Shown: in pieces, positions 16,374 through 58,459 of the stretch | Layout of the letters: each line of letters begins with the position of its first letter | How positions within the stretch are numbered: position 1 is the stretch's first letter | Position numbers and translations under genes: made by a program | From: Patescibacteria group bacterium | GTDB lineage: Bacteria > Patescibacteriota > Patescibacteriia > UBA9934 | Direction: 5' to 3' | Assembly (NCBI GenBank): GCA_041666205.1 | Contig: JBAYHI010000001.1 | Coordinates: 26,894-90,893, forward strand | Length of the DNA stretch: 64,000 bases | Notes under the pieces: model-generated | Databases searched by the model: none | What the model was told of the DNA's origin: nothing | What the model saw: only the letters and a program-made list of their open reading frames with translations

Positions 16374-16397
16374 GGGTTTAATCGACGCGAGTCATTG

Positions 16398-32253: not shown

Positions 32254-32263
32254 CGGAAATTAT

Positions 32264-42955: not shown

Positions 42956-42984
42956 TGACGATTTCATGTGTTCAATATAGAATG
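42956..42984 (+). promoter_or_regulatory. Sigma70-like promoter TTGACG-17-TAGAAT for the surface-protein cluster, with two DnaA-box-like ttatccaca motifs upstream (42853-42861, 42894-42902)
   Basis: Read by eye. The 18-mer catagtttatccacaggt is identical to the one at 26623-26640. Confidence 0.45.
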
Positions 42985-42991
42985 ACTGTGT

Positions 42992-43915
42992 ATGAAAAAG
43001 CTGTTCTTCATTTTGGCTTCTTTCGCGTTTTGCGGAAGTTTGTGTTCAATTTCTTTTGCGTTTGCCGAGATGTCGTCCACGAACTACATTATTAAGTTCG
43101 ACGACATCAGCGTTGGCGGTGGCGATACGGGTACCTCGGCTTCTTATCGATTGCGCGATACCGTTGGAGGATCGGCAATTTCACAATCAACATCAACCTC
43201 GTACGAAATGAACCCGGCCTATCGCGAGGGAATTTACGATCGTGTTGCGGCGTTTGAGGTATTCATTCAAGATAAAAGCTCGCAAGTTGCGGCAACTTCC
43301 CTCAGTGGAAAGACGCTCGTCGTTACAAATGCATCAGGATTTGCTACGGGCGATATGATAGCTGTTGTGCAAAATGAGGGTAGCTCACAGGTTTCAGCAA
43401 TCGGGAAGATCATAACGATTATTGGCACAACAATTACGCTCGACGGCATTGCAGACAATGGCACAACGCCAACCATTGATGGTGTGACCGATTATGCTTA
43501 TGTAATGGATGCGACATCACTGAGTTTGGGGGCGCTTTCAAATCGAATAGTGACAACTGGTCTTATTGGGTGGCAGGTGTCTGCCGATGTAGACGGCGGT
43601 TATGATATTTACATTGCCGAAGATGGGCTACTTCGCGATTCCGTATCGGGGTATACGATCCCGGCAGTTGCAGATGGCGCTGTTTCGGAAGGAAACTCAG
43701 AGTATGGTGCAATATCGTCGGATTTGAGCCTTGGCGCTTCAACATTTGATACGCAAGACACAGCGTTTTCAACATCGTTACAACAAATCGCAAGTCGCGA
43801 TGACGCAACGCTAAATTCTCGAGATTTTCTAACCCTCAAGGCCACTTCATCTTCAACGCAGGCGATCGCTTCGTACTCGCATGCACTGTCACTTTTGTAT
43901 GTGGGGGATTACTAA
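42992..43915 (+). CDS. Secreted hypothetical protein (signal peptide; Thr/Ser/Gly-rich)
   Basis: Signal peptide MKKLFFILASFAFCGSLCSISFAFA; no recognised domain. First gene of a co-oriented surface cluster. Confidence 0.6.
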   Translation: MKKLFFILASFAFCGSLCSISFAFAEMSSTNYIIKFDDISVGGGDTGTSASYRLRDTVGGSAISQSTSTSYEMNPAYREGIYDRVAAFEVFIQDKSSQVAATSLSGKTLVVTNASGFATGDMIAVVQNEGSSQVSAIGKIITIIGTTITLDGIADNGTTPTIDGVTDYAYVMDATSLSLGALSNRIVTTGLIGWQVSADVDGGYDIYIAEDGLLRDSVSGYTIPAVADGAVSEGNSEYGAISSDLSLGASTFDTQDTAFSTSLQQIASRDDATLNSRDFLTLKATSSSTQAIASYSHALSLLYVGDY

Positions 43916-44810
43916 AATTTTATCCGTTACATTTTTTTCTGTTCTGGTTCCTTTTTCGTTTGTGCGGGCGGTCACGTTGTTTCCGGAAAATGCGAATGTC
44001 TCCGTGAATCCGGGCGAGACGCAAACAATACAACTCATTGTTGCAAATGATGGGTTTGCTGAGAAAACCTACATTATTACAATCGTTCAAGGGGCGCTTG
44101 ATCCTGTTTCGGGCGATATCATGTTTACGGAAGATGAGTCTCTGCGTGATTGGATTGCGTCCGATATTGATTCAGCCACGATCGCGCCAATGAATCAGGT
44201 AACGCTCGAGATCTCCATACGTCCAAACGCAACAGTAGTACCGGGAAATTACATCGCGGGGGTGCAAGTACAAGAACGTGTTCCAGCCGATGGAACCGTT
44301 GCGGTTTCCTCGGGATTTATCAGCCTGCTGTTTCTTACTGTAGGGGATTCGTTAACGCAAAACGTCGAGCTTCTTGATTTTTCATCGTCAATACATTTTT
44401 TTGCACACCTCCCGGTGCAATTTTTTGCTACAATGAAGAATAGCGGGGAAGCAATGAGTCAACCTGGCGGGGCAGTTACAATCCGAGATCTGTTTGGAAA
44501 TATTGTGACGGCAGTGCCATTTAATTCCGGGGCCAATCGTCTTCTTCCGGGCCAGACACGTACGCTGGTGTCGCAATGGGGAAGTGACGCAGATGTAAAA
44601 GGATTTTTTGCACACGTTGTGCAAGAATATAAAGGTCTTTGCATCGGCATTTTCAAAGCGGAAGCTGTGATTGTGCCGTTTGAGAACGTTGCAATTACGC
44701 CAGATGCGATTTGGATCATCGTATTCCCGTGGCACCTTGTTCTTTGTATGAGTTCGGTTCTTATTGCGGTCTTGTTCCTAGCCTTTGTGTTCCAAAGAAA
44801 GCGATTATGA
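43899..44810 (+). CDS. Secreted protein with C-terminal TM anchor
   Basis: N-terminal signal, C-terminal hydrophobic anchor plus QRKRL. Start is uncertain (43881 or 43899) and the gene overlaps the previous stop. Confidence 0.55.
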   Translation: MWGITKILSVTFFSVLVPFSFVRAVTLFPENANVSVNPGETQTIQLIVANDGFAEKTYIITIVQGALDPVSGDIMFTEDESLRDWIASDIDSATIAPMNQVTLEISIRPNATVVPGNYIAGVQVQERVPADGTVAVSSGFISLLFLTVGDSLTQNVELLDFSSSIHFFAHLPVQFFATMKNSGEAMSQPGGAVTIRDLFGNIVTAVPFNSGANRLLPGQTRTLVSQWGSDADVKGFFAHVVQEYKGLCIGIFKAEAVIVPFENVAITPDAIWIIVFPWHLVLCMSSVLIAVLFLAFVFQRKRL

Positions 44811-47800
44811 TGAATTTGGTGAATCGATGTTTTTTTGGGGCAGTCGTTGTAACGATTGCCTTTTTTGCGTGTGGAAATTCTGTTGTATCTGCTGCATCAA
44901 TTACTAACGTATATGATCAACCTTCGACACTCCTCATTTCAACTGCATCAAACCACAATTTTACGATCGTCCCCACAAGTAATATCGACGAGGGCGATAC
45001 GCTTACACTCACATTTCCTTCCGGATTCACAACTGCGTCGATTACCGAGGACGACGTTGACATTGCAGATGATTCGGTAGATCTCACGACCGCAAGCGAT
45101 AGTTGTGCTGGCGCGGAACAAGCGAGTGTTGTGATGGCTTCAAATATTTTAACGATAACAGTTTGTGCCGGTGATGGTGGAACAATTGCCGCCGGGAGTA
45201 CAGTAGCGATTGAAATTGGACTCAATGCATCTGCAAGTGGAACGGGCGCAAATCAAATCACAAATCCATCGGCTGTAGCAACATATTTTATAGCGCTAGC
45301 TGGCACGTTTGGAGATTTTGGCTCGATTCCAATCCCAATTCTCAGTCGTGTGGGTGGCACGGCATCTGCAACCGTTCCATCATTTGCAGCGGGAGGGTCG
45401 GGTGAAGAACCGTCGCCGTCGTACATGATTACACTCGATGCACCAAACGGAGGTGAATCACTCGATTACGGCGACGCACAAAATATTACTTGGTCGAATG
45501 GAGCTGCAATTCCACTCATCGACATTTATTATTCAACTGATTCCGGAGCATCCTATGCGCTTATTGCTGCCGGCCAGACAAATGACGGCTTGTATTCCTG
45601 GACTGTGCCTGACGTGACGACCACTCGCGCGCGTGTGCGTGTGGATGGAATGGACGGATCAGCAACACTGGCAACCGACGCGTCAGACGCAGATTTTACG
45701 ATCATCGGGTCATCCATTGGCGCGGATTATCTTGTGACGGTCACAAGCCCAAATGGGGGAGAGAGTTATGAGCAAGGCGTTTCGCGCACAATCACGTGGA
45801 CCAGTGGCTCACTCATTTCTACGGTCAACATTTTGTATTCGACAAATGGGGGCAGTAGCTATACAAGCATTGCGTCAGGCGAATCCAACGATGGCGCATA
45901 TACGTGGACTGTGCCGGTCGTTGTTACCGCAGATGCAAAAATTAAAATCGAAGGGATCGTGGGAGCACTTCAAATATCGTCCGATGAATCAGATGGCGCG
46001 TTTAGCATCACAGCACCAGTCGTAATTGAGGAACCTGAGCCGGAGATTCCGCCCGTGGAGCCACCTGTTGAACCGCCCGTGGAACCCCCGACAGAACCAC
46101 CCACGACTCCTCCGACTGAATCGCCAACGACTCCACCCGTGACTCCACCGGGAGGCGCTGAACCCGGCACGGAAACGCCAGCCACACCTTCGCCAACAAC
46201 TACCGAGATAGAAGGTGTGGAACACGAGGTGAACGTTACGGTCACGACTGAAGACGGGTCTATTGCGCTTGGTGGCGACGAAGGCGCTTATGTTTTGCCG
46301 GGAATGCCGGTTCTTGTGCGTGTTATTGCTGAAGACACTGAGAAAATTGAAGACGTTTCAGTGACGATTGGTAACCGAACGTATATGCCGTCAGAAGTCT
46401 CTGACGGGGTTTATGTTGTGTCAGCTCCAATTGCCGGGGGTGTAACAAATGTCACGGTTATCACGACCTATACCGACGGAGAGACCACATCTACGGTGGG
46501 GTTGGCACAAATGGGATACGGTATCGTGTATGAAATCGTGGATGACGCATGGGTTCCCGTGTCTGGCGCATTGGTAACTGTGCAAGATTGGAGTGGGGTG
46601 AATAACCCAGCGATCACGGGTTCCGATGGTGCGGTTGGATGGTATGCGCCAAACGGTTCTTATACGGTGCGCGTTGAAAAAGAGGGCTACGAGACGAAAG
46701 AAGTGGGGCTTTCGGTTTCAAATAATGTATTGGCGCCAAACGTTGAGCTCACAAAAACCGCTGAAGAAATCATCGAAGAGGTAATTCCTGGCGAAACAAT
46801 TGTGCCGGTTGTTGTGTCAGAAACCGTTCAAGTGATCTCCCAAAGCGTGACACAAGTTGCGACCGCGGTTTCGGACGCGGTTATTGCGGTTCGAGAAAAT
46901 CAGGCGGTGCAAGATGTTGCAACCGTTGCGACGCCGGTTATGGTTGTCTCTGCTGTATCGAGCGCGGCGGTTCTCTCAACATCGTTCAATTTGTGGCCGA
47001 TTTTGCAATATCTCTTCACGGCACCGATTCTTTTCTTTGCGCGCCGTCGCCGACAGAATTTCGGCATCGTTTACAACTCAATCACCAAAGTGCCAATCGA
47101 TTTGGCTGTTGTACGACTTTACGACGCACAAGCCAAACTTGTACGCACCATGGTAACGGATTCAGACGGTCGCTATTTCTTCAATGTTGACGCTGGTAAA
47201 TACTTTATTCGTGTTACAAAACCCGGATTTACATTCCCAAGCGCGTATTTATCGGGCGTGAAAGCAGACGGGAATTTCGTGGATATTTATACGCAGGGCT
47301 ATTTGGAAGTAACCGAACAATCCGTCATTATTGCGGCCAATATCCCACTTGATCCGGTGAGCGAAGAGGGCGCAAAAGCCACAAAACGGATTCGGAAGGA
47401 CAAAATTTTACGTGTTTTTCAAAATTCCGTGGCCCTCGCTGGCATTATTTTGGCGATCTACATCGTCGTGATTCAACCGTCCGCGTTTTCATGGTTGATG
47501 CTTGGTGTGCAGGTTCTGTTATATGTTGGCACTAAGCTTCTCATTCGACCTCGCAAAAAGAAAGGGTGGGGAATTGTATATGGTGCAGAAGATCGTTCGC
47601 CAATTGCAAATGCAATCGTTCGTCTTTTTGAGCCGAAGTACCATAAATTGCTTGAAACTGCGATCACGGATCGCAAAGGACGCTATGCGTTTATGGTGGG
47701 ACCAAACGAATATTATGCCTCGTTTGAGAAGCCCGGGTACGAGACGCGCGAGGTGCGACCAATTGACTATCGAAACAAGAAAGAACTTACCCCCATCTCG

Positions 47801-47830
47801 GTTGATGTCCCGCTTCGCCGTCAGGTATAA
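44807..47830 (+). CDS. Large surface protein: signal peptide, two ITW-type repeats, Pro/Thr/Glu-rich linker, three carboxypeptidase-regulatory-like domains, TM segments
   Basis: Start at MMNL, overlapping the previous stop. Repeats LDAPNGGESLDYGDAQNITWS and VTSPNGGESYEQGVSRTITWTS. Linker EPPVEPPVEPPTEPPTTPP. CarboxypepD_reg-like patterns (SDGRYFFNVDAGKYFIRVTKPGF; DRKGRYAFMVGPNEYYASFEKPGYE). Confidence 0.7.
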   Translation: MMNLVNRCFFGAVVVTIAFFACGNSVVSAASITNVYDQPSTLLISTASNHNFTIVPTSNIDEGDTLTLTFPSGFTTASITEDDVDIADDSVDLTTASDSCAGAEQASVVMASNILTITVCAGDGGTIAAGSTVAIEIGLNASASGTGANQITNPSAVATYFIALAGTFGDFGSIPIPILSRVGGTASATVPSFAAGGSGEEPSPSYMITLDAPNGGESLDYGDAQNITWSNGAAIPLIDIYYSTDSGASYALIAAGQTNDGLYSWTVPDVTTTRARVRVDGMDGSATLATDASDADFTIIGSSIGADYLVTVTSPNGGESYEQGVSRTITWTSGSLISTVNILYSTNGGSSYTSIASGESNDGAYTWTVPVVVTADAKIKIEGIVGALQISSDESDGAFSITAPVVIEEPEPEIPPVEPPVEPPVEPPTEPPTTPPTESPTTPPVTPPGGAEPGTETPATPSPTTTEIEGVEHEVNVTVTTEDGSIALGGDEGAYVLPGMPVLVRVIAEDTEKIEDVSVTIGNRTYMPSEVSDGVYVVSAPIAGGVTNVTVITTYTDGETTSTVGLAQMGYGIVYEIVDDAWVPVSGALVTVQDWSGVNNPAITGSDGAVGWYAPNGSYTVRVEKEGYETKEVGLSVSNNVLAPNVELTKTAEEIIEEVIPGETIVPVVVSETVQVISQSVTQVATAVSDAVIAVRENQAVQDVATVATPVMVVSAVSSAAVLSTSFNLWPILQYLFTAPILFFARRRRQNFGIVYNSITKVPIDLAVVRLYDAQAKLVRTMVTDSDGRYFFNVDAGKYFIRVTKPGFTFPSAYLSGVKADGNFVDIYTQGYLEVTEQSVIIAANIPLDPVSEEGAKATKRIRKDKILRVFQNSVALAGIILAIYIVVIQPSAFSWLMLGVQVLLYVGTKLLIRPRKKKGWGIVYGAEDRSPIANAIVRLFEPKYHKLLETAITDRKGRYAFMVGPNEYYASFEKPGYETREVRPIDYRNKKELTPISVDVPLRRQV

Positions 47831-47916
47831 TGAGGAAAGATTTCGTATTGCGGGAGGTGGATTTTTACGAATGCACCTCTTGCTGTATGAAGCATGAGGA
47901 TTCCTTCTTGAACCGG

Positions 47917-50900
47917 ATGAAAAAAATCGCACGTTTGTTCGTGATCGTGTTTGTTTTTGCGTTTGCATTTGGTGTTACGGCTCCTAAACTTCTCAATGCA
48001 AATGCTGCCGCATCACCAAGCAATATTATTGGCTACCAAGGTCGACTTTTAAATGCAAACGGCGTTCCCCTTACCGACGCGACGGTTGATGTGATCTTTC
48101 GACTTTATACGGCGTCTTCCGGTGGTTCGTGTTTGTGGTCAAACTCTTCGGCTACATGTGCATCAGCCACCGCGCGAAGCGTAACGCTTACAGATGGGCT
48201 TTTTTCTGAAAATCTTGGTGACACGGGAAGTTCTTACGCGGCGATTGCAAGCACGGTATTTGGAGATAATGCAGCGGTCTACTTGGATGTAAATGTGGAG
48301 GGCGAGAGCCTATCGCCTCGTCGTCTTTTGGTTGCGGCGCCATATGCCTTGAATGCACAAACGCTCGATGGAATTGATTCTACGGCATTTGCGCTTCTTA
48401 CAAGTACCGATTTGGATGACGCATATAATAATTTCACTACGAATGCGGCTGTCATCAATATCGACGACAATAACAACGATACGAATGCAGGCCTCACATT
48501 TCTTTCTGCAAACGATACGATCGTTGGGGGCACCATGCTCCAAATTACCAACAACGACACGACCAATAATCCAACAACACTTGCAATCACCAATACCAGC
48601 ACGGGTAGTGGCTTGGCAGTGACGCAGTCCGGGGCAGGGGTTGGGGTTGCAATTACCCAAAACGGTGCTTCAACCGGGCTTACCCTTTCACAAACAACAG
48701 ATTCAATCGCTTTTGGGCTCACTTCCAGTTCAACAACAGCGAATGTTTTTGATATTTCTTCCGGGACGACTTCAGGAAAGATTTTTGATATAACAACGTC
48801 CGCGCTGACGACTGGGAAAATATTTGATCTCACAACGTCCGCGCTGACCACGGGAACGATTTTGGATATTGGAATCACTTCGGAAAATGTGAGTACGGCC
48901 GATATTATTCGCGCATCACATACAAAAATCATCGACACAACCCAGGCGATTTCTGGCAACATGATTGATTTCGAGCGTGTCTTGATGTCAGATACGGGTG
49001 GGGATGTTACCATTTCGGGCGACATGGTAAGTCTCGTAAGCGCAGGTTCAGCGTCTGGCGGTACGCTTACGGATTCGTCAAATGTTCTTTTTGCAAAACA
49101 AGATTATGCCTCCGCAACCGGTGCTGTCATTAATATCGATAACGACGGTGTCGGAGAAGGAATCTGGATTGAACAAGATGGCGATGGTCGCGGAATGTTT
49201 ATTAACCAAGATGGCGCTGGAATTGGTTTGGAAATTGATGCAGAAGCCACGGCATATTCGGGACTTTATGTGAATAGCGCGGCCACTGGCGCCAATGCGA
49301 TTGATTTTATTGGGAGTACGAATACTGGCAAGTTATTAAATCTCACCGCAAACTCCCTCACAACTGGTGTAGGGATTGATTTAGCAACGACGTCTACCTT
49401 GCTTACAAGCGGGGACCTCATTCAAGCGGATCATAGCGCAACGTATACGACCACGAAGACGCTTGACGGGAACTTATTGGATTTAAGTCGTAATCTTACA
49501 ACAAACGGGGCAGGGGCTCTCACATTGAGTGGTGCGCTTGCAACGCTTTCAAATACAGGAACGCAAACCGCAGGGACGCTCACGGATTCATCAAATATTC
49601 TTTTCCTCGATCAGAATTACGCAGCCTCAACCGGGGCGGCACTTCTCATTGATTCCGAATCACTAACAGGTCCATCGATTCAGGTGGATAGCGTTGCCAC
49701 AACTGGGAGCACGGTGGTTGTGAATGCGCCAAGCACAACCACGGGTACGATTTTGAGCATCACCGGCGGTAACTTTACTGACGATTCTGGGTTAGCACTT
49801 GCCATTGACGTGACGGAATCCACTGAGACGGCAAATATTTTGAATATTCAAACAGATTACAGCTCTGGTAATAATAACGTGTTCCGAATTGAAGCCGACG
49901 GCGAAGCATTTAGCGATATTGGGTTCACAGCTGGAGCATTTTCAACAAATTATTACGATGGATCCATTACCTCAACTGGCGCGTTCACCTACGAAGCGGC
50001 AACGAGTTTTACCTGGCAAGACGACGCGGTTGGCCCAAATACACTCATGACGCTCACAGATCTTGGAACGAACGCAACCCTGAGTGTCACAGGGGACTTG
50101 TTTATCGACAAAAATGACAATGATGTCGCTCTAGAAATCGACAGCGAATCCACAACAACCAATGTTTTTGCGCTCAATGCTGATCCAAATCTTTCAGGGA
50201 ATGTTCTTGACATGAGCGCCGATGGATTAACATCCGGAAATGGTTTGGATATTCAAAGTACGTCAACGGCGCTTACAAGCGGAGATCTCATCCAAGCCGA
50301 CCACACGGCAACGTATGGATCTGGCACAGTCAGTGGAAACCTACTTGATCTAACGCGAGCAATCGCAGGTACAGCAACGGTAAACGGATCACTTGCAACA
50401 CTCGCAAGTACAAATAGTGGGAGTGTAACGGATAGCGCAAATATTTTGTTCCTCGATCAGAATTACGCAGCCTCAACCGGGGCGGCACTTCTCATTGATT
50501 CCGAATCACTGACAGGTCCATCGATTCAAGTGGATAGCGTTGCGACAACCGAAAATACGGTGGTTGTGAACGCACCAAGCACAACAACCGGAACAATTTT
50601 GAGCATCACTGGTGGGAACTTTACCGACGATTCCGGATTGGCGCTTGCCATTGACGTTGGGGAATCAACCGAAACAGCAAATATTTTGAATATTCAAACA
50701 GATTACAGTTCTGGCAATAATAACGTGTTCCGAATTGAAGCCGACGGCGAAGCATTCAGCGACATTGGATTTACTGCTGGCTCGTTCTCGACAAATTATT
50801 ACGATGGATCCATTACTTCGACCGGAGCGTTTACATATGAGTCTGCTACGAGTTTTACTTGGCAAGACGACGCGGTTGTCCCGAATACACTCATGACCCT

Positions 50901-53900
50901 CACAGATCTTGGAGCAAATGCAACCTTGAATGTTACAGGCGACCTATTCATTGATAAGAACGATAATGATGTAGCACTCGAAATTGATAGTGAATCTACA
51001 ACGACGAACGTTTTTGTCCTAAATGCGGATCCGAACCTTTCAGGGAACGTCTTTGACATGAGTGCCGATGGATTGACCTCTGGGAATGGCTTAGATATTC
51101 AAAGTACGTCAACGGCGCTTACAAGTGCAGATCTTATCCAAGCTGACCACACGGCAACGTATGGATCGGGAACAGTCAGTGGAAACCTACTTGATCTAAC
51201 GCGAGCAATCGCAGGTACAGCGACGGTCAATGGAGCGCTTGCGACGCTTTGGAGCAAAAATACGGGGAGCGTCACTGATTCCGCAAATATTTTGTTCTTG
51301 GACCAAGATTTCGCGACGTCCACAGGTTCTGCACTCAAAATTGATACGACAACAAGTGCCGGAAAAGCCATTGAGGTTCTTGCTGACAATTTCGGCGGCA
51401 GCGGGAGTGCTATTTCTGTATCACTTGATAATTTGAATGACGGGACAGGGTTTTTACTTGATTCAACATCTGCAAATATTTCCTCTGGTAAGCTCGCAAA
51501 CTTGAGCCATGCCGGAACCTATACGACCGGCGGACCAGTTTCTGGCAATATCCTTGCTGTTTCACGTGCTGTGCAAGTAGATAATGGCCCGTATATTACG
51601 GACGTCACAGGTTCGGTATTTGCGCTATCAAGCAATAATGGAACACTTGGCGGAACCATGAACGACAGTGCGCAAGTGCTTTCAATTTCGCAGTTATATA
51701 CTGGCGCAACGGGTGATGTTTTGAATATCAATAATGACTCAACCGCTTCAACCTCAATCGGCATTCTTGCCGACAGTACGACGGGCACGGTTTTTTCCGC
51801 AACCGCAAATGCGCTCACAACCGGAAATGGTATTGATTTGACAACTGCCTCCACCGTGCTTACGAGTTCGGATCTTATTCAAGTCGATCACACCGCAACA
51901 TATGGGTCTGGCACGATTTCGGGAAATATTCTTGATTTAAGTCGCGCAATTGCAGGCACAGCAACGGTCAATGGAGCGCTTGCCACGCTTGCGAGTACAA
52001 ATAGCGGAAGCGTGACAGATGGAGCAAATATTCTATTCCTCGATCAAAATTACACGGCGTCAACCGGAGCGGCACTGCTTATTGATTCAGAATCGACTGC
52101 TGGTTCCTCGATTGCTATTTTAAGTTCTGCCACCACCGGGGACACGCTTGAAGTGAACGCCTCTGCGACAACAAGCGGGAATATTTTGGATATTGGTGCA
52201 AACGCTGTTGCAAACGGGAAGGTAATCGATATTGATAATAGCGCGCTTACCACAGGATCCATCATTGATATCATCACGGATTCCGGCGCGATCTCTTCTG
52301 GAGATCTTATTCAAATGAATCACAATGGCAGTTATTCCACCAATGTCGGGTTAAGTGGCAGTTTTATGGATTTTACTCGTGACCTTACGAGCACGGCCAA
52401 TACGCTCACCGTTACCGGGCCGATGGTTGAATTCCACAGCGATGGCACGGTTTCGGGAGGGGCGGTGACGGATTCATCAAATATTTTATTCCTGAACCAG
52501 GACTACGAGGCATCAACTGGCGCATCACTTGCGATCGATTCAGAATCACTCACGGGCCCGTCCATTCAAATTGATAGTGCAACGACGACGGGAAATACAC
52601 TTGTTTTCAATGGGGATTATGTAACAACGGGCGCGGTGGAAGTACTAAGTGCAGACCGGTTGACTTCCGGGAATATTCTCGACCTTTCAAGTACTTCCAC
52701 GGTATTGGAGGGGAGCGACTTCATTCAAGGTGATCACACCGCAACATACGTTACAAGCAAAACAATCACCGGCAACCTGCTTGATTTGAGCCGAAACCTT
52801 ACGCTCAACGATGCAGGAAGCGGATATACGCTAGGGATCACCGGAGCACTCGCAACTCTTGCCAATACGGGGACTCAAACATCCGGTACACTCTCGGATT
52901 CCTCAAATATTTTGTTCCTCGATCAAAACTACGCCGCGTCAACTGGCGCGGTGCTCGCAATTGATTCTGAGGCAACATCGAGCAATGCACTTTTGATTGA
53001 TGCTGCAAACACCGATACCGCAGTTATTGCAGCCAATGGCGATAGTTTGACGACTGGAAATCTTCAAACCATGAGCGCTGATGCTCTTACAACTGGCAAT
53101 GGGATCGACATTTCAACAACATCTACGGCGCTCACAAGTTCTGACTTATTCCAGGCCGACCATACAGCAACCTATACAACCACAACGAACGTTACGGGAA
53201 ATCTTTTAGACTTACGTCGTATTCTAACAATCAACGATGGTGGGTCTGACGATCAAACGCTCACATCAAGTGGTGCACTTGCCTATATTCAAAGCGCCAC
53301 AACCGATACATCGGGAGCACTTGCAATTACGGCGCCGCTTCTTTGGCTCGATGAAGACTCTACTGCTTCCACGAATACGATTTTAAAAATTGATTCCGCT
53401 TCCACATCAACAACCGCCATTGGAATCACCGCGGATGCGCAAACAACAGGAAACGGTATTCTTATGAGCGTTGATGGGATGACAACCGGATCTGCTCTAT
53501 ACATTGAGCGTGGGGACGGGGCAACACAATTCTCTGATACTACGGAGGGATTGGCCTATATCGCTCAATTGGACGATAACTCCAATGGTCATATTTTGCA
53601 GGTGAAGAGCAATGGGAGCGGTGGGATATTGGGATATTATAATCACACAGGTCTCAATTCAACGGATCCTGTTTTGAAGGTAATCTCAAATAGCGTAGCA
53701 GATTCGGCAAATGAAGGAATCAATGGATTTGTTGCGGAGTTTATCAATAATAGTGCGGATACAGGTTTAGATAACCGCATGGGGATCATGATCCAGGCCT
53801 GTAAAGACGATGGTGCAACAACAGCATGTAATTTTCTTGAATTCCGCGATGGTGATGGAACGGCAATGGGGGCTGTTGAAGCAAATGGAGCCGGTGGTGT

Positions 53901-55917
53901 TACTTTGCGTAGCGGAAGCGCGGACTATGCCGAATATTTTAATGGCAATCCAGCACTTTTCCCAGAAGGAGTTATTGCCGGCATTCAATCCGATGGTTCC
54001 GTAGCGCCAGCAATCACGGATGAATCTGTAATTGGTGTCCGTTCAATCTCGCCGATTGTATTAGGAGGCGTAAGCGAGGGTGAGTCTATTGCCAATAAAG
54101 TAACGGTTGGTTTGTTTGGCCAGATTCGCGTGAATGTTAATAATGAAGGTGGTGCAATTACAGCAGGCGACTACATTACGGTTTCGTCAGTCCCCGGCGT
54201 TGGGAAGAAGGCAACGGAATCGGGAAAAGTCGTGGGTCAAGCGCTTGAATCCATTGATGGATCGGGCCTCATCAAAGTTTACGTTGCCCCACATTGGCAG
54301 GGAATTAATTTCCTCGCCTCCGACGGAAGTGCAACAACGGTTGCAACCGATTTCATTGTCGACGCTGTCGGCCCGGCCACAGAAAGCTCTGCCTCTGCAT
54401 CACGCTCACTCATCCTGCGCGGTTCAGCCTGGGTTGATGGCGCTTCTGCCTCAACCGATATGGTCATTTTGAACGACGTAACGGATAGTTCTGACTATGG
54501 ATTGAGCGTTTCAAATAACGATGGATCTGAAGTGGCTAATTTGAGCAATAATGGCGATTTGGCAATTGCGGGGAACCTGTATCCATCAGATCGAGGAGTT
54601 TTGCAAACGGAAAAGTATATTTATTACGATGGCTCAACTGGCGTTGGTGGCGATTTAATGCGCACAAATGCCTCGGGATGGGGAACAGGATCATATGACT
54701 TTGCCGAAATGTTCCCGTCAAGTGATTCACTCGCAGCTGGCGAACTTGTGATTTTTGGAAGCAGCAATGAAAGCGTTGCGCGGTCAAGTGGCGCAACATA
54801 CGATCAAATGATTGCCGGTGTGGTTTCAACAAAACCTGGATTCTTAGCCGGTGAAAACAATCCTGGCGATGTGCCGGTGGCTCTTGCGGGTCGTGTTCCA
54901 ACCTATGTGAGTGGGGAAAACGGTTCCATCGCACCTGGTGATCCACTTACATCTTCTACAAAGCCGGGTTATGCCATGAAGGCTACGACTGCTGGACCAA
55001 TCGTTGGCTACGCCATGGAAGCGTTTGATGGAAATACCGGCGTTGTGATTGCGTTCATTCGCCCTTCCTATTATGACGGCGCAACCGATTTGGCTGATGC
55101 CCCGGCTGCAGACAATTCCGCCTCAGAACTTGAAGGTGTTTCCACGCTCAATTTATCGCAAATGCATGATTTGGCAGGTGGAAAACTTATCAATGTTGGT
55201 AGTCTCTCTGGGTTGGCTGGGGCGTGGACATTATCCGAAAACGGGAACTTTGCAACGAGTGGTGACATCAAACACGTCGTAACTTCTTATCAAAATGAGA
55301 AGATCGATACGTACGCTTCTCTTTCTCGCGAACAAACGATTCAATTATCTGGTACCGTGGACATGCAAAATGGATTTGCTAGCGTCACATTTGAAGATGT
55401 AGACGAAAAATTCAATGATGTGATTTCAAATATTGCCCCGTATCGAGTGCTTATTACACCAGAAGGACTTTCGGGACAGCTCTACGTATCAAATCGTGAC
55501 CAAAATGGATTCACGATTCAAGAAAATGGCGGTTCATCGAATGTGAAAGTTGATTGGCTCGTGATCGCCTACGAAAAAGATAAGGAGCCGGAGCAAGAAT
55601 CGCTCATCCCAGAAGATAATATCCCAGCCGAAGAAACGCCTATCGTTTCGGATCCAGTGAGCAATGACGCTGGGACAACCCCAGGGTTGTCCGTACCTGG
55701 GGAATCGCCGGAGGAAATAATTCCTTCGCAAGATCCCATCGTTGATCCAGACGTAGGGACAACTCTAGAGTTGTCCGTGCCAAATGAACCAACCGAAATC
55801 GTCGAACCGATCATTGAAACGCCAACCGAACCGATCATCGATAATTCGTTGATTAATGACGTAGGGACAACCCCAGGGTTGTCCGTACCGGAAGAATCAA
55901 CGATCATTACGGAATAA
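47917..55917 (+). CDS. Giant (about 2660-aa) Thr/Ser/Gly/Asn-rich repeat surface protein
   Basis: Single uninterrupted ORF. Start chosen at MKKIARLFVIVFVFAFAFG (signal peptide); alternatives are 47830 and 47887. It is built from about 280-aa degenerate repeats, including two near-identical 846-bp tandem copies. The C-terminus has three [ND]D[AV]GTTPGLSVP[GE]ES repeats. Confidence 0.8.
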   Translation: MKKIARLFVIVFVFAFAFGVTAPKLLNANAAASPSNIIGYQGRLLNANGVPLTDATVDVIFRLYTASSGGSCLWSNSSATCASATARSVTLTDGLFSENLGDTGSSYAAIASTVFGDNAAVYLDVNVEGESLSPRRLLVAAPYALNAQTLDGIDSTAFALLTSTDLDDAYNNFTTNAAVINIDDNNNDTNAGLTFLSANDTIVGGTMLQITNNDTTNNPTTLAITNTSTGSGLAVTQSGAGVGVAITQNGASTGLTLSQTTDSIAFGLTSSSTTANVFDISSGTTSGKIFDITTSALTTGKIFDLTTSALTTGTILDIGITSENVSTADIIRASHTKIIDTTQAISGNMIDFERVLMSDTGGDVTISGDMVSLVSAGSASGGTLTDSSNVLFAKQDYASATGAVINIDNDGVGEGIWIEQDGDGRGMFINQDGAGIGLEIDAEATAYSGLYVNSAATGANAIDFIGSTNTGKLLNLTANSLTTGVGIDLATTSTLLTSGDLIQADHSATYTTTKTLDGNLLDLSRNLTTNGAGALTLSGALATLSNTGTQTAGTLTDSSNILFLDQNYAASTGAALLIDSESLTGPSIQVDSVATTGSTVVVNAPSTTTGTILSITGGNFTDDSGLALAIDVTESTETANILNIQTDYSSGNNNVFRIEADGEAFSDIGFTAGAFSTNYYDGSITSTGAFTYEAATSFTWQDDAVGPNTLMTLTDLGTNATLSVTGDLFIDKNDNDVALEIDSESTTTNVFALNADPNLSGNVLDMSADGLTSGNGLDIQSTSTALTSGDLIQADHTATYGSGTVSGNLLDLTRAIAGTATVNGSLATLASTNSGSVTDSANILFLDQNYAASTGAALLIDSESLTGPSIQVDSVATTENTVVVNAPSTTTGTILSITGGNFTDDSGLALAIDVGESTETANILNIQTDYSSGNNNVFRIEADGEAFSDIGFTAGSFSTNYYDGSITSTGAFTYESATSFTWQDDAVVPNTLMTLTDLGANATLNVTGDLFIDKNDNDVALEIDSESTTTNVFVLNADPNLSGNVFDMSADGLTSGNGLDIQSTSTALTSADLIQADHTATYGSGTVSGNLLDLTRAIAGTATVNGALATLWSKNTGSVTDSANILFLDQDFATSTGSALKIDTTTSAGKAIEVLADNFGGSGSAISVSLDNLNDGTGFLLDSTSANISSGKLANLSHAGTYTTGGPVSGNILAVSRAVQVDNGPYITDVTGSVFALSSNNGTLGGTMNDSAQVLSISQLYTGATGDVLNINNDSTASTSIGILADSTTGTVFSATANALTTGNGIDLTTASTVLTSSDLIQVDHTATYGSGTISGNILDLSRAIAGTATVNGALATLASTNSGSVTDGANILFLDQNYTASTGAALLIDSESTAGSSIAILSSATTGDTLEVNASATTSGNILDIGANAVANGKVIDIDNSALTTGSIIDIITDSGAISSGDLIQMNHNGSYSTNVGLSGSFMDFTRDLTSTANTLTVTGPMVEFHSDGTVSGGAVTDSSNILFLNQDYEASTGASLAIDSESLTGPSIQIDSATTTGNTLVFNGDYVTTGAVEVLSADRLTSGNILDLSSTSTVLEGSDFIQGDHTATYVTSKTITGNLLDLSRNLTLNDAGSGYTLGITGALATLANTGTQTSGTLSDSSNILFLDQNYAASTGAVLAIDSEATSSNALLIDAANTDTAVIAANGDSLTTGNLQTMSADALTTGNGIDISTTSTALTSSDLFQADHTATYTTTTNVTGNLLDLRRILTINDGGSDDQTLTSSGALAYIQSATTDTSGALAITAPLLWLDEDSTASTNTILKIDSASTSTTAIGITADAQTTGNGILMSVDGMTTGSALYIERGDGATQFSDTTEGLAYIAQLDDNSNGHILQVKSNGSGGILGYYNHTGLNSTDPVLKVISNSVADSANEGINGFVAEFINNSADTGLDNRMGIMIQACKDDGATTACNFLEFRDGDGTAMGAVEANGAGGVTLRSGSADYAEYFNGNPALFPEGVIAGIQSDGSVAPAITDESVIGVRSISPIVLGGVSEGESIANKVTVGLFGQIRVNVNNEGGAITAGDYITVSSVPGVGKKATESGKVVGQALESIDGSGLIKVYVAPHWQGINFLASDGSATTVATDFIVDAVGPATESSASASRSLILRGSAWVDGASASTDMVILNDVTDSSDYGLSVSNNDGSEVANLSNNGDLAIAGNLYPSDRGVLQTEKYIYYDGSTGVGGDLMRTNASGWGTGSYDFAEMFPSSDSLAAGELVIFGSSNESVARSSGATYDQMIAGVVSTKPGFLAGENNPGDVPVALAGRVPTYVSGENGSIAPGDPLTSSTKPGYAMKATTAGPIVGYAMEAFDGNTGVVIAFIRPSYYDGATDLADAPAADNSASELEGVSTLNLSQMHDLAGGKLINVGSLSGLAGAWTLSENGNFATSGDIKHVVTSYQNEKIDTYASLSREQTIQLSGTVDMQNGFASVTFEDVDEKFNDVISNIAPYRVLITPEGLSGQLYVSNRDQNGFTIQENGGSSNVKVDWLVIAYEKDKEPEQESLIPEDNIPAEETPIVSDPVSNDAGTTPGLSVPGESPEEIIPSQDPIVDPDVGTTLELSVPNEPTEIVEPIIETPTEPIIDNSLINDVGTTPGLSVPEESTIITE
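49590..51281 (+). repeat. Two near-identical in-frame tandem repeats of 846 bp (282 aa) inside the giant ORF
   Basis: The 49606 ctcgatcagaattacgcagcctcaaccggggcggcacttctc string recurs at 50452; period 846 nt. Protein segments TDSSNILFLDQNYAASTGAALLIDSESLTGPSIQVDS ... are near-identical. Confidence 0.85.
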
Positions 55918-55975
55918 GCCCATATTTTCAAGACGCCTTCTGTGATAAAATGGAGGCGTCTTTAAATTTGGATTT

Positions 55976-58363
55976 ATGATGAGCACAAACGGTTCTCGAT
56001 TCACAATTTGGTACGAAAAAATTGCCAAGCTTTTGCTCTATGCAATGGCATTCCTCATCCCTTTGGCCTATTTCCCTTGGACCGTTGATACGCTCGAGGT
56101 CAATAAGCAAACAATTTTGCTCGTTGGTGTTTCGCTTTTAACAATTGCCTGGCTTGGCACCATGGTCGCCCGAAAGCAATTTTTCTGGAAAAATAGCCCG
56201 TTCTTTTTGCTCGCCCTCCTTATATTGGCGGGAGTTGGGGTATCGACAATTTTTTCTATTGCTCCTTATCTTAGTTTGTTTGGAGAAGGGATGCAGGAGT
56301 ATACGAGCCTCTTGAGTACCTTAGGATTTATTTTATTGTTCATCGTTGGCTCGCATTATTTATCCGAAACTCGAGTACAACGTGTGCTTTTTGCTTGTCT
56401 TTTGAGCTCTTCTGCGCTTGTTGGCACCTCGATTCTTTTAGCGCTCATAAAGCTTCCAATCGTGAATACGAATTTTATTGGCACGCCAAACGGCTTGGGA
56501 CTTTTCTTGCTCATCATGTCCATTCTCGGGTTTGGACTTTGGCTTGCAGAAAATCCAATCAAGGAGACGCGTATTTTCTTAGAAGGTTGGAAAGGGTTGC
56601 TCGAAAAAATTGCAATTGGTGTCACAGGATTTTCCGCGCTCATTGTATTGCTCGGGCTTGATTATAATCCATTGTGGCTTCTTTCGATTTTGGGAATTGG
56701 TGCCATGTTTGCATTCGCCTTCGTTCGTGCCGAGGAATTCCCTCATACGTCTCGATTTATTCTGCCAATGATTCTTTTCGTTTTTTCGATTGTGTTTTTG
56801 TTCATTCCAAGCTTCATGGGCAATACGTTCGCGGTGGAGGTTTCTCCGTCTCACGCCGGGAGTATTGAAATCGTAAAAGGTTCACTTGGCGATACGTCGC
56901 TATTGTTTGGATCAGGCTCTGGCACATTTGCCATGGATTACGCTAAGTATCATTCCGCTGAAGTCAACGCAACAAATTTCTGGGATGTGCGATTTGATCG
57001 CGCAGTAGCGCATGTTTACACGATTCTTGCGACTAATGGAGTTGTAACGATGCTACTTTTCCTCATTTTCATCATTAGTTTGTGTCTCGCAGCTCTTTCC
57101 TCTCTCATTAAACAGCGCGTGCACGACGAATGGAAGATGACGTTTGTCGCATTTGCCGGTTGGATTGTGATCGTGGCAGGATTCTTCCTCTACTCGAGTA
57201 ACTTCACCATGCAATTTTTGTTCTGGACACTTTCGGCAATTCTTGTGGCACAACTTGGGCCTGAAGTAAAAGAATGGGCATTCAAAGAATCGCCACGTTA
57301 CGGACTTCTTACGGCATTTTTATTTGTCATCGTGAACGTTGGGCTTTTGACACTGCTTTTCGTGACAGCGTCTCGCTATGCTGCGGAAGTTTCTTATGCG
57401 CATGCGGTCAGCATTGATTCAACCGGGGCAGATGTTGAAGATGTGATTACCGATCTCGATACCGCGGCACGTCTAAACAAATGGAGCGACATCTATTATC
57501 GCAATCTTGGAAATGCGCTTTTGGTAAAAACCGCAAAGGAAATCGCCGCAAACAACCAAGATACAGCAGTTTTGCGTGATTTGGTTGCCGCAAGCATCAA
57601 CTCCGCCAAGCGTGCCACTGAACTTTCACCAAATAATGTTGTCAATTGGCATGTGATGGGGGATATTTATCGCGAAGTCGTGCCACTCGTTGGAAATTCT
57701 GATGTTTATGCGGTAGCTGCATATAAGAAGGCCTCGGAACTCGCTCCAACAAATCCTAAATATCTTGTGGCCCTGGCTCGTGCATATCTTGTCACGGCTG
57801 ATGCGCAGCAAACGCTACTTTCTAGCACCGACGAGGCAACCGCAAGCGATGCACAGCTAAAATGGGACGAAGCCATGAAGCAAGCCGAGGAGTCACTCGA
57901 CAAGGCGCTCATGCTCAAAACTGATTACGCGCTCGCTCAATACTATTTGGCGCTTGTTTACGAACGAAAAGGAAATCTAGCTGACGCAATCAAGGGCATG
58001 GAGTCGGTTCGCACCAGCAGTCCAAACGATGTTGGCGTTTCGTTCCAGTTAGCGCTTCTTTACTTGCGCCAAGGGAAAATGGATGAAGCAAAAACTGAAT
58101 TCGAGCGTGCGATTGGTATTGCGCCAAACTTTAGCAATGCGCTTTGGTACCTTTCAGCCATCTACGATGAGCAGGGCGATACGGCAAAAGCGATTGAAAT
58201 GATCAATAAGGTCAAAGAGTTAAATCCAGATAATGCGCTTGTTGATCAGCGTTTGCAGAGTTTGCAAAGTGGCGGATCGGTTACAACCGAAGAAACCCAG
58301 CCAATTGTCGAGGGTGAAAATCCCGCAACCGAGGTTGTACCAGGCGAAACAACGAATCCGTAG
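55976..58363 (+). CDS. Polytopic membrane protein (about 10-12 TM, O-antigen-ligase/polymerase-like) with C-terminal TPR repeats
   Basis: Multiple TM helices in the N-terminal 450 aa. The C-terminus has TPR-like repeats (LALVYERKGNLADAI ... LALLYLRQGKMDEAKTEFERAIGIAPN ... LSAIYDEQGDTAKAIE). The ligase assignment is tentative. Confidence 0.6.
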   Translation: MMSTNGSRFTIWYEKIAKLLLYAMAFLIPLAYFPWTVDTLEVNKQTILLVGVSLLTIAWLGTMVARKQFFWKNSPFFLLALLILAGVGVSTIFSIAPYLSLFGEGMQEYTSLLSTLGFILLFIVGSHYLSETRVQRVLFACLLSSSALVGTSILLALIKLPIVNTNFIGTPNGLGLFLLIMSILGFGLWLAENPIKETRIFLEGWKGLLEKIAIGVTGFSALIVLLGLDYNPLWLLSILGIGAMFAFAFVRAEEFPHTSRFILPMILFVFSIVFLFIPSFMGNTFAVEVSPSHAGSIEIVKGSLGDTSLLFGSGSGTFAMDYAKYHSAEVNATNFWDVRFDRAVAHVYTILATNGVVTMLLFLIFIISLCLAALSSLIKQRVHDEWKMTFVAFAGWIVIVAGFFLYSSNFTMQFLFWTLSAILVAQLGPEVKEWAFKESPRYGLLTAFLFVIVNVGLLTLLFVTASRYAAEVSYAHAVSIDSTGADVEDVITDLDTAARLNKWSDIYYRNLGNALLVKTAKEIAANNQDTAVLRDLVAASINSAKRATELSPNNVVNWHVMGDIYREVVPLVGNSDVYAVAAYKKASELAPTNPKYLVALARAYLVTADAQQTLLSSTDEATASDAQLKWDEAMKQAEESLDKALMLKTDYALAQYYLALVYERKGNLADAIKGMESVRTSSPNDVGVSFQLALLYLRQGKMDEAKTEFERAIGIAPNFSNALWYLSAIYDEQGDTAKAIEMINKVKELNPDNALVDQRLQSLQSGGSVTTEETQPIVEGENPATEVVPGETTNP

Positions 58364-58403: not shown

Positions 58404-58459
58404 AATGCATTTTTGTAGAGACGCGATTAATCGCGTCTCTACTTGCATCTGTACATATT

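Follow-up and report, generated by a model that had tools for sequence, protein, structure and literature searches.

We consider it fairly probable that the locus described here, which lies in a 64,000-nt stretch of DNA (the window), is an operon of five genes, passed on vertically in the ultrasmall, symbiotic Candidatus Uhrbacteria, that encodes a minimal Pam-type donor-strand pilus and a giant fibre adhesin, serves host attachment and is probably regulated by DnaA. Pam-like polymerisation and function of the module are what we infer. The preliminary description had proposed that the genes form one operon for the cell surface or an appendage in a symbiont with a reduced genome, and the present data support that proposal. 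The function, which it had left as unknown, can be given more precisely, the candidate parts being a Pam-type pilin, a PapD-like chaperone and a MAT/phage-tail-fibre-like protein. The genes and associated elements are listed in Table 1.

Table 1 Genes and sequence elements of the five-gene module and its borders.
Feature	Position in window	Strand	Description
NUDIX gene	42328-42750		Upstream neighbour of the module (Pfam)
Terminator-like hairpin and T-run	42765..42783	+	Consensus scan; directly past the NUDIX gene
Perfect DnaA box TTATCCACA	42853..42861	+	139 nt upstream of g1 start
Second perfect DnaA box TTATCCACA	42894..42902	+	98 nt upstream of g1 start
Sigma70-like promoter, TTGACG-17-TAGAAT	42955..42983	+	Consensus match only; ends 8 nt before g1 ATG
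g1	42992-43915	+	307 aa; Pam-superfamily pilin-like secreted protein
g2	43899 (or 43881)-44810	+	303/309 aa; membrane-anchored PapD/WxLIP-like two-domain chaperone candidate
g3	44807-47830	+	1007 aa; membrane-anchored stalk protein
Sigma70-like site, TTGATG-18-TATAAT	47802..47831	+	g3/g4 junction; consensus match only
g4	47917-55917	+	2666 aa; giant MAT/phage-tail-fibre-like protein
Hairpin, 8-bp stem, then TTTAAATTT	55931..55961	+	Between g4 and g5; read from sequence
g5	55976-58363	+	795 aa; polytopic membrane protein with TPRs
Hairpin, 12-bp stem, without clear T-run	58415..58442	+	52 nt past g5 stop; read from sequence
ychF	starts 58585		Downstream neighbour of the module (YchF by Pfam)

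The five plus-strand open reading frames were found where the preliminary description had placed them. Reading the junctions from the sequence, g1 and g2 overlap by 17 nt and g2 and g3 by 4 nt (ATGA), while gaps of 86 nt and 58 nt separate g3 from g4 (with the g4 start at 47917) and g4 from g5. Alternative g4 starts at 47830 and 47887 would give proteins of 2695 and 2676 aa. The g1-g5 order is kept in ~80 species-level Uhrbacteria/Patescibacteria genomes, and the related genomes carrying the module belong to Patescibacteria/Candidatus Uhrbacteria. At evaluable loci, order and strand matched for g2 in 71/75, g3 in 68/68, g4 in 65/65 and g5 in 31/31. Every related locus that was long enough showed g1-g2-g3-g4-g5 on a single strand, a result in favour of the grouping proposed earlier. 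Because the genes overlap or abut and their order is conserved, we infer that they are co-transcribed as one operon.

The terminator-like hairpin past the NUDIX gene is the likely 5' boundary of this transcription unit, and the hairpin beyond g5, before ychF, its likely 3' boundary. Inside the unit, the sigma70-like site at the g3/g4 junction is possibly an internal promoter for g4-g5 and the hairpin between g4 and g5 possibly an attenuator; together they could split expression of the module. The promoter motifs once described as DnaA-box-like proved to be two perfect 9-mers, and the feature is conserved: a perfect TTATCCACA stands upstream of g1 in 67 of 79 relatives. Its density is 2.53 per kb upstream of g1 versus 0.018 per kb elsewhere (~140-fold above background), and conservation in the g1 upstream regions is confined to this 9-mer. 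The genome's own dnaA, with a box cluster, lies at 14.8-16.5 kb. DnaA probably regulates the module, judging from box conservation. It would bind the perfect boxes upstream of g1 and control transcription, and such control of the g1 promoter would tie appendage production to the replication or cell-cycle state.

The g1 protein comprises a signal peptide (residues 1-25), an N-terminal extension (27-81; nt 43070-43234), a beta domain (82-171) and a C-terminal Pam_pilin_C-like Ig-type domain (172-307; nt 43505-43912). The NCBIfam Pam models are NF058579 and NF058581. PamT was matched by the window's g1 (E 5.9e-7) and by 50 of the 61 family members (best 2.3e-16), with scores of 29-52 bits, far below the curated cut-off of 240 bits. 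Pam_pilin_C was matched by 26 of the 61 (best 3.5e-9), at 17-33 bits and thus far below the curated cut-off of 55 bits; the alignment spanned model positions 2-148 of 148 and the final ~130 residues of family members, and the window's own g1 gave no direct match to this model. One domain of the g1 structure model is like chaperone-usher pilins. These profile matches place g1 in the Pam pilin superfamily, as a distant member. The mature protein contains no cysteines. Its predicted structure also has a tailspike-N-domain-like fold. The extension at residues 27-81 is strongly conserved and disordered in the monomer model, and is likely the donated element.

The strongest family match of g1 is PamT, which has been modelled as a non-polymerising tip subunit (bioRxiv 10.64898/2026.03.03.709456), and g1 is the sole pilin gene per locus. 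Both points would suit a PamT-like, acceptor-only g1 that forms no homopolymer and, helped by g2, makes a defined, short junction complemented by a donor strand, which joins the membrane-anchored stalk g3 to the fibre g4; the product would be a stalked fibre adhesin, not a pilus. In both g3 and g4, conservation is highest in the N-terminal domain, as expected of docking surfaces, and the binding partner of the MAT N-domain in Bdellovibrio is unknown (PMC10769870). However, g1 has a conserved, disordered N-terminal extension of its own that resembles a donated element, which favours self-polymerisation over the junction role, and no homology was detected between the N-terminal domain of g3 or g4 and g1. 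We therefore regard a junction-forming g1 as unlikely.

Hydropathy showed N-terminal hydrophobic signal-like segments in g1-g4 and confirmed the C-terminal transmembrane (TM) helix reported for g2. The g2 protein has a signal, beta-sandwich domains at residues 25-148 and 156-275, and the TM helix at 278-302, with a predicted two-domain PapD/WxLIP-type fold. By structure prediction and by analogy, it is a candidate PapD-like membrane-anchored chaperone of g1. Its orthologues gave no sequence match to Pam-named models. The best structural match was WxLIP (PDB 9i1y), and 27 of 70 g2 orthologues matched Pfam WxLIP_PGBD (best 2.9e-6), with scores below the gathering score. WxLIPs, which share the layout of signal and C-terminal TM, bind WxL proteins and link surfaces (PMC10599100); they are described as binding partners and not as assembly chaperones. 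A WxL/Csc-like complex, in which a DUF916/DUF3324-type g2 tethers g1 and g4 non-covalently to the envelope without strand exchange, would fit these features. We nevertheless hold it to be quite improbable: g2 fits bona fide pilus chaperones roughly as well as WxLIP, g1 is sequence-related to Pam pilins, g1, g3 and g4 had no WxL-domain family match in Pfam, and no LPXTG protein was found. W-x-L tripeptides were absent from g1 and g3, and g4 has a single, chance-level WTL.

The g3 protein was confirmed at its coordinates; the length of 1008 aa given previously counts the stop codon, and the protein has 1007 aa. Pfam and the conservation map placed, after the signal, a conserved N-domain (residues 28-190), which is among the best-conserved parts of g3, then variable Ig-like repeats and a Pro-rich linker (415-448). 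The repeats formerly noted as ITW-type are two Kre9/KNH-type Ig-like repeats, and the Pro-rich stretch, three CarboxypepD_reg-like stretches and hydrophobic segments were all recovered. Beyond the linker, a conserved beta-sandwich region is followed by hydrophobic segments at ~704-745 and ~875-913, in which TM segments fall at ~727-745 and 875-913 (hydropathy, charge), and the positive-inside rule places two of the CarboxypepD_reg-like domains in the cytoplasm. By analogy, g3 would serve as the structure's base or anchor, a counterpart of PamR without being its homologue.

The Thr/Ser-rich repeat protein g4 (2666 aa against the earlier ~2660) had raised the worry that it is interrupted or reflects collapsed repeats. 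Such collapse is unlikely, because the g4-internal DNA repeats are just 61-92% identical to each other, a near-identical ENA contig matches 20,846 nt of the window, both 846-nt repeats among them, apart from a single mismatch (50552), and g4 orthologues elsewhere are unbroken open reading frames of 984-2049 aa or longer. In the residue numbering of the 47830 open reading frame, a signal peptide precedes a conserved N-domain (~52-200; nt 47983-48429), a shaft (~201-1900; nt 48430-53529) of hypervariable Thr/Ser/Gly/Asn-rich repeats, a conserved C-terminal region (1960-2600; nt 53707-55629) and a Pro/Glu-rich tail. The conservation map thus shows both ends conserved and the shaft hypervariable. 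The protein is 24% Ser+Thr, with ~8 repeat modules of 118-282 aa each, and the conserved C-terminal region holds two D(Y/F)AE(Y/M)F modules (residues 2032 and 2290). It matched NCBIfam Bdello_MAT_N (E 4.4e-6, below the curated cut-off) and Pfam Peptidase_G2 (E 2.5e-4, sub-threshold), and its profile matched the tailspike chaperone domain 28nb (E 0.006) and the phi29 preneck appendage (E 0.036) in the PDB. Each similarity is weak and they converge, so that by sequence g4 resembles MAT and phage-tail-fibre proteins.

Phage-tailspike-like chaperone elements in g4, the tailspike-N-domain-like fold of g1 and an integrase gene 11 kb upstream (31205-32128; Pfam) would also be expected if the fibre and its neighbours were leftovers of a prophage or phage tail. 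This reading is extremely improbable and effectively refuted by synteny: housekeeping genes bound the module on both sides (Pfam), the upstream context PolA, holA, S20 and RmuC recurs among the relatives read, and the gene order is held across species. Moreover, there are no other phage genes within or beside the module, g1 had no tblastn match among 50,697 phage records, and base composition is uniform with the flanks.

The polytopic membrane protein with C-terminal TPRs described before, g5, has ~13 hydrophobic helices (hydropathy) and a TPR array at ~480-765 (TPR families). An external loop (280-343) is conserved and bears GSGxGTF...FWxxRFDR. The membrane domain had no Pfam match and no PDB sequence match, and is, by these searches, outside known families; the g5 family comprises 2174 cluster representatives. 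At 2 of 3 distinct distant loci with g5 relatives of 26-31% identity, the gene immediately upstream is g4-like.

In the pilus and fibre model, the five products, all with N-terminal hydrophobic signal-like or TM segments, would enter the Sec pathway. Anchored in the cytoplasmic membrane by its C-terminal helix, g2 would act as PamC/PamD and Pap/Fim chaperones do and cap the incomplete Ig-like C-terminal domain of g1, and g1 subunits would be joined by donor-strand exchange through the 27-81 extension. As base, g3 would present its conserved external N-domain on a variable Ig/Pro-rich stalk, crossing the membrane with three helices and placing two beta-sandwich domains in the cytoplasm. The g4 protein may trimerise into a fibre like those of MAT proteins and phage tails; its N-domain would dock on a surface element from its own operon, and its shaft and C-terminal module, the latter with intramolecular-chaperone-like (Peptidase_G2-type) elements, would recognise the host surface. 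Given its linkage to g4 genes, g5 may help to export, anchor or glycosylate the fibre, acting on it or together with it.

The closest known system is that of Ca. Mycosynbacter amalyticus, with PamA/PamB pilins, PamC/PamD chaperones, the PamT tip, PamE and the PamR anchor (Troman et al., bioRxiv 10.64898/2026.03.03.709456; preprint), in which a 'tail fibre-like protein' is reported as a central conserved neighbour of pam operons. Both systems are restricted to CPR and have a pilin that is exported by Sec and ends in a Pam_pilin_C-type Ig-like domain (here a distant sequence match), an adjoining PapD-like chaperone with a C-terminal membrane helix, a tail-fibre-like protein nearby, and no usher or other trans-envelope machine. 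In contrast to the four pilin types and two chaperones of Pam, the present locus has one of each; it has the 1007-aa three-TM g3 in place of an RbmA/FnIII-type PamR, and a P-loop motif search found no ATP synthase genes in the window, which also lacks CorB and MFS neighbours. These features set the locus apart from the pam operon as described. Further differences are that g1 scores below curated cut-offs with the tip subunit PamT as best match, that mature g1 is free of cysteines, against 2-3 cysteine pairs in PamA and PamB, that g4 and g5 are fixed in the operon, that the carriers are Uhrbacteria (Parcubacteria group) whereas the preprint highlights Saccharimonadia and Microgenomatia, and that the conserved DnaA box is unmentioned there (bioRxiv 10.64898/2026.03.03.709456).

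Compared with chaperone-usher pili (Pap/Fim; archaic Csu; CFA/I), there is here no outer membrane, no usher and no detectable sequence homology; the chaperone is membrane-tethered, and an additional N-domain and an N-terminal extension of 55 residues distinguish the pilin. The WxL/Csc clusters of Firmicutes (PMC10599100; PDB 9i1y) are likewise clustered with large surface proteins, and their WxLIP (DUF916 + DUF3324), the best structural and weak Pfam match of g2, has the same layout of signal, two beta domains and C-terminal TM; they differ in having WxL-domain and LPXTG proteins, whereas the partner g1 is Pam-pilin-like. As in Bdellovibrio MAT proteins (PMC10769870), a conserved, beta-rich N-domain of ~130-150 aa comes after the signal peptide of g4. 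With MAT fibres and with phage tailspikes or fibres that carry C-terminal intramolecular chaperones (phi29 gp12, Peptidase_G2), g4 shares a long, repetitive, species-variable shaft and, towards its C-terminal end, chaperone-like D(Y/F)AE(Y/M)F modules. However, all g4 scores are below curated cut-offs, the S74 SDxxxK motif is absent, g4 is far longer, and its two G2-like modules are followed by ~300 more conserved residues and the Pro/Glu-rich tail; it is also a constant operon partner of a pilin, a chaperone and a TPR membrane protein. If the pilus and fibre model is true, the locus would represent the CPR-specific Pam kind in a cut-down, divergent form, genetically joined to a fibre adhesin.

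Patescibacteria live attached to host cells, and for most of them it is unknown how the host is recognized and held. The preliminary description had proposed a cell-surface module of unknown function at 42992-58363, and the five consecutive plus-strand ORFs were present there as claimed. Neighboring genes overlap by 17 nt (g1/g2) and 4 nt (g2/g3) or are separated by gaps of 86 nt (g3-g4) and 58 nt (g4-g5), and we infer that g1-g5 are co-transcribed. Housekeeping genes flank the operon, with PolA, holA, S20, RmuC, tRNAs and a NUDIX gene upstream and YchF downstream; a terminator-like hairpin lies 3' of the NUDIX gene, and base composition is even across the operon region. A 288-kb ENA metagenome contig (k141_1431597) was near-identical to the window: over 20,846 nt it differed at a single position, a mismatch at 50552 within the g4 repeat region. 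A second assembly equaled the window over 4 kb without differences.

Coordinates of the operon genes and of dnaA in the window
Feature	Position	Strand	Product	Remarks
g1, pilin-like protein	42992-43915	+	307 aa	
g2, chaperone candidate	43899-44810	+	303 aa	309 aa from 43881
g3, membrane-anchored stalk protein	44807-47830	+	1007 aa	
g4, giant fiber-like protein	47917-55917	+	2666 aa	alternative starts 47830, 47887
g5, polytopic membrane protein	55976-58363	+	795 aa	
dnaA	14958-16373	-		E 8.5e-131 to solved DnaA

At least 148 g1 homologues were found; the named ones all belong to Patescibacteria or Candidatus Uhrbacteria, and none carries a Pfam domain. Scanning GTDB with each species represented by a single genome yielded 80 loci, and the five window proteins were compared with all ORFs of these loci by BLAST. 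Gene order and strand were identical in all scanned loci. The g2 gene was detected in 71 of 75 evaluable loci, the remaining four showing a g2-sized gap, and g3, g4 and g5 were detected in every evaluable locus (68/68, 65/65 and 31/31, respectively). The PolA-holA-S20-RmuC upstream context was found again in those relatives that were read. The five genes are thus co-conserved in order and strand, the point on which the preliminary description had staked its module. A prophage origin of the genes is excluded: the synteny speaks against it, and phage matches are lacking.

Many of the GTDB species-representative records that carry the locus are titled 'uncultured Gammaproteobacteria bacterium', 'Methylococcaceae bacterium' or 'Candidatus Kapaibacterium' (including L009, L010, L013-L016, L020-L023, L027, L035 and L046), one of them being a complete 1.0-Mb chromosome (OZ246408.1); such titles most likely reflect mislabelling or contaminated bins. 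Elsewhere in the window, a 632-aa ORF for a multi-pass membrane protein (187-2085) stands out by 60% G+C against 44-50% in the rest and may be foreign DNA. Two 65-nt direct repeats (19485-19549 and 19978-20042), 89% identical and 493 nt apart, lie in a region of small ORFs. At 11 kb upstream of the module, a tyrosine recombinase (31205-32128; Phage_integrase family, E 5.5e-43) adjoins two tRNA genes (32177-32336); it shows no visible link to the operon and could be XerC/D-like or part of an integrative element.

The single NCBIfam match of the window g1 was to 'CPR-type pilus protein PamT' (E 5.9e-7, residues 9-77). Among 61 members of the g1 family, 50 matched the PamT model (NF058579; best 2.3e-16) and 26 matched Pam_pilin_C, the 'Pam pilus system pilin subunit' (NF058581; best 3.5e-9). 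In individual orthologues the PamT model covers the N-terminal 75-140 residues, and Pam_pilin_C lies end to end (2-148 of 148) on the last ~130. The scores are well under the NCBI curated cut-offs (29-52 bits versus 240 for PamT, 17-33 versus 55 for Pam_pilin_C), so g1 is a distant relative and, by NCBI's rule, no PamT orthologue. Judged from these profile matches, g1 is related, distantly, to the Pam pilus proteins; a direct match to solved Pam structures was not obtained from the PDB copy searched, which holds no such entries.

The predicted fold of g1 resembles that of chaperone-usher pilins and is preceded by an N-terminal extension that is conserved and, in the monomer model, disordered. 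Segment 27-81 holds three S-S-x-Y-x-(I/L)-type motifs, and its mean top-residue frequency (0.65) exceeds that of the two folded domains (0.58 and 0.60), as expected if this segment, like a donated strand, becomes folded only on a partner. The only signs that g1 may form a filament by donor-strand exchange are indirect ones, the extension and the modeled fold. The mature protein contains no cysteines. Profile searches of the window retrieved one g1 and one g2 only, with no extra pilin or chaperone genes, and each related locus likewise carries one of each. The main rival explanation keeps the same parts without a homopolymer: g1, whose window copy matches PamT alone in NCBIfam, would be an adaptor of the PamT kind that connects g3 with g4.

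The window g2 matched Pfam WxLIP_PGBD weakly (E 0.02); among 70 g2 orthologues, 27 matched this family (best 2.9e-6) and 35 matched fn3_5. An AlphaFold2 model built on a 17-sequence alignment of database proteins (pLDDT 78.7) comprises two beta-sandwich domains and a C-terminal helix (278-302). On this model, the gene adjacent to the pilin-like g1 would encode a PapD/FimC-like chaperone with a C-terminal transmembrane helix, as in the Pam system. In the Pam system, PamC and PamD are PapD/FimC-like chaperones that are kept membrane-anchored because CPR cells have neither an outer membrane nor an usher (Troman et al., bioRxiv 10.64898/2026.03.03.709456), and the architecture of g2 is that given for PamC/PamD. 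The WxLIP matches also raise a weaker rival, a WxL-like tethering complex. WxL/Csc clusters carry WxL-domain and LPXTG proteins beside WxLIP, whereas here the WxLIP-like g2 stands alone: g1, g3 and g4 gave no WxL-domain Pfam match, none of the five proteins has an LPXTG motif, and W-x-L is absent from g1 and g3 and occurs in g4 as one chance-level WTL. For want of these partners, membership in the WxL clusters was rejected.

The stalk protein g3 opens, after its signal peptide, with a domain (28-190) of 57% mean column identity and an invariant Cys pair, for which Pfam, NCBIfam and the PDB returned no relatives. Two Kre9/KNH-type Ig-like repeats and a Pro-rich linker follow; this middle section is species-variable and fn3-like in some relatives. 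The C-terminal half is conserved and consists of a PEGA/CarboxypepD_reg-like domain, hydrophobic segments and two further CarboxypepD_reg-like domains, with Arg/Lys clusters (RRRRQ, KRIRKDK and RPRKKK) beside the helices. By the positive-inside rule, g3 is predicted to have three transmembrane helices and to place its last two beta-sandwich domains in the cytoplasm. Such CarboxypepD_reg/transthyretin-like domains (46985-47806, g3 727-1000), conserved in 67-68 relatives, would occupy an unusual site for the fold. We read g3 as the probable membrane base or anchor of the structure, analogous to PamR and unrelated to it. A cryptic pilin in the N-domain of g3 or g4 was rejected: hhalign against g1 gave a probability below 1%, and the profiles found nothing in the PDB.

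From the start at 47917, g4 carries a classical signal peptide (MKKIARLFVIVFVFAFAFGVTAPKLLNANA/AAS). The ~150 residues that follow are highly conserved (60% mean column identity), a domain retained in 64-65 related loci, and they match Bdello_MAT_N (NF053851) at E 4.4e-6 with 26.6 bits, under the cut-off of 60. In the Bdellovibrio MAT family, the signal peptide of every member is directly followed by such a domain, for which no surface partner is known (PMC10769870). Residues ~200-1900 are divided into about eight modules (118-282 aa each) that are recognizable by DSSNILFLDQNYAASTG and DLIQADH; this Thr/Ser/Gly/Asn-rich repeat region is almost unalignable between species, and the whole protein ranges from 984 to >2600 aa. 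The preliminary description had considered that the repeats might be an assembly collapse, which is unlikely, since at the DNA level they are 61-92% identical and they recur in the 288-kb ENA contig. A diversity-generating retroelement acting on g4 was rejected, as no template-like repeat occurs outside g4 within the window.

The C-terminal ~650 residues of g4 are again conserved and include two D(Y/F)AE(Y/M)F modules, which match Pfam Peptidase_G2, an intramolecular-chaperone autoprocessing domain, at E 2.5e-4 (21 bits, under the cut-off of 25). Profile comparison linked these modules to a tailspike chaperone domain (28nb, E 0.006) and the phi29 preneck appendage chaperone (3gqh, E 0.036); a motif search for the S74 SDxxxK motif in g4 was negative. 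The matches are individually marginal and mutually consistent; g4 may trimerise and process itself. The matches also fit the 'tail fibre-like protein' at the center of pam neighborhoods (Troman et al., bioRxiv 10.64898/2026.03.03.709456).

The product of the last gene, g5, combines about 13 hydrophobic helices with a TPR array and has a conserved external loop (GSGxGTF...N.T.FWxxRFDR). Neither Pfam nor the solved structures returned a match to its membrane domain, whether searched by sequence or by profile. The family is large: at E<=1e-3 it counts 2174 cluster representatives, most of them ~780-830 aa long and built alike. Three distinct loci hold relatives only 26-31% identical to g5, and in two of them a g4-like gene lies directly upstream, which ties g5 to the fiber. 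Glycosylation, anchoring and export are candidate activities. The topology, with a large loop after TM9 and a GxGxGxF motif, presumably resembles the O-antigen ligase/GT-C type; as an identification, O-antigen ligase/Wzy_C/GT-C was set aside and kept as a lead only, since g5, 45 full-length relatives and 15 N-terminal domains gave no Pfam match to these families and no PDB match was obtained by sequence or profile.

The DnaA-box-like motifs reported ahead of g1 proved to be two perfect boxes (TTATCCACA), 139 and 98 nt upstream. The whole window holds five perfect boxes, one of which lies in the dnaA upstream region beside one-mismatch boxes. Upstream sequence was sufficient in 79 related loci; 67 of these had one or more perfect boxes within 350 nt upstream of g1, and ten of the other 12 carried a one-mismatch box. 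Perfect boxes occurred at 2.53 per kb upstream of g1 and at 0.018 per kb elsewhere in the loci. Conservation there is limited to the box 9-mer, the flanks not being conserved, and the boxes fall into two position and orientation classes ('+' near -87, '-' near -155). Since the upstream neighbor gene differs among loci, the box belongs to the g1 promoter. On these motif data, the simplest reading is that DnaA controls the operon. Our literature search found no paper that links DnaA boxes with Patescibacteria, and the Pam preprint does not mention them (bioRxiv 10.64898/2026.03.03.709456).

Around dnaA itself, a cluster at 14845-16483 comprises one perfect box (16455) and eight with one mismatch; the gene lies near the cumulative GC-skew minimum (about 12-14 kb), and the window probably contains a replication origin. 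An inverted pair of perfect boxes (26601, minus; 26629, plus) stands beside a GC-rich non-coding stretch of about 440 nt (within 26040-26640) between two minus-strand genes. This stretch folds far better than shuffled sequences (MFE -160.8 kcal/mol, z -5.75), and Rfam and ARAGORN assigned no Rfam family, tRNA or tmRNA to the structured region (26.0-26.5 kb). The box at 26629 has the extended sequence TAGTTTATCCACAGGT in common with the distal g1 box (42894), and the stretch may represent a structured RNA, so far unannotated, that is controlled like the g1 operon. Within the operon, a sigma70-like match (TTGATG-18-TATAAT, 47802-47831) overlaps the g3 stop, and g4 and g5 are separated by an 8-bp-stem hairpin followed by TTTAAATTT (55931-55961); the two features hint at a separate promoter for the fiber genes and at possible attenuation of g5.

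Taken together, the locus most likely represents a minimal, divergent Pam-type system for host-cell attachment, expressed under DnaA control. The pilin g1 would be exported by the Sec pathway, handled by the membrane-tethered PapD-like chaperone g2 and polymerised or joined by donor-strand exchange. This core would be combined with the membrane base g3, the hypervariable MAT/tail-fiber-like adhesin g4 and the fiber-linked membrane factor g5, and the whole assembly would attach to a host cell. We think it unlikely that the unit is, beyond this, a composite host-capture organelle. In that picture a minimal Pam-type donor-strand filament or stalk (g1-g3) would present g4 as a hypervariable MAT-like trimeric fiber, held by its conserved N-domain on the pilin or on the head of g3. 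The g5 protein would represent a novel family, either a membrane enzyme or an assembly factor, that serves the fiber, and switching by DnaA would time the production of the attachment gear to one stage of the replication cycle. If true, the surface partner long sought for MAT-type N-domains would be identified, and the unit would be the first DnaA-controlled adhesion organelle in CPR.

The most likely reading suggests that a stripped-down Pam relative is a fixed, syntenic feature of uncultivated Uhrbacteria. A pilin and chaperone hard-wired to a giant fiber with a species-variable shaft is the pattern expected of a host-specificity determinant, and the gene set offers candidates for the anchor of MAT-like fibers and for the replacement of usher and PamR. 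The perfect DnaA box, being near-universal, suggests that attachment is coupled to replication control in these bacteria, which have very few regulators. The locus thus provides testable leads on host attachment, MAT-type fiber docking and cell-cycle control in an uncultivated CPR lineage.

Chaperone-usher pili need an outer-membrane usher, whereas none of the five proteins matched an usher family and g5 is alpha-helical and polytopic, with no beta-barrel. Knowledge of the Pam pilus comes from one 2026 preprint on a single cultivated saccharibacterium (Troman et al., bioRxiv 10.64898/2026.03.03.709456), and its kind is also represented by NCBIfam models. Pam has several pilin classes (PamA, B, E and T), whereas the Uhrbacteria locus has a single pilin and a single chaperone; in place of the RbmA-like FnIII anchor PamR it has the different and much larger three-TM g3. 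Pam neighborhoods contain a tail-fiber-like protein and ATP synthase genes; the tail-fiber-like g4 is present in 65/65 evaluable loci, and a motif search of the 64-kb window, with Pfam run on part of its ORFs, found no F1 P-loop motifs. The Pam pilus kind is already known, and no new principle is added; the locus differs from it in composition, with g3, g4 and g5 as fixed members, in lineage (Uhrbacteria), in the cysteine-free pilin and in the conserved DnaA box.
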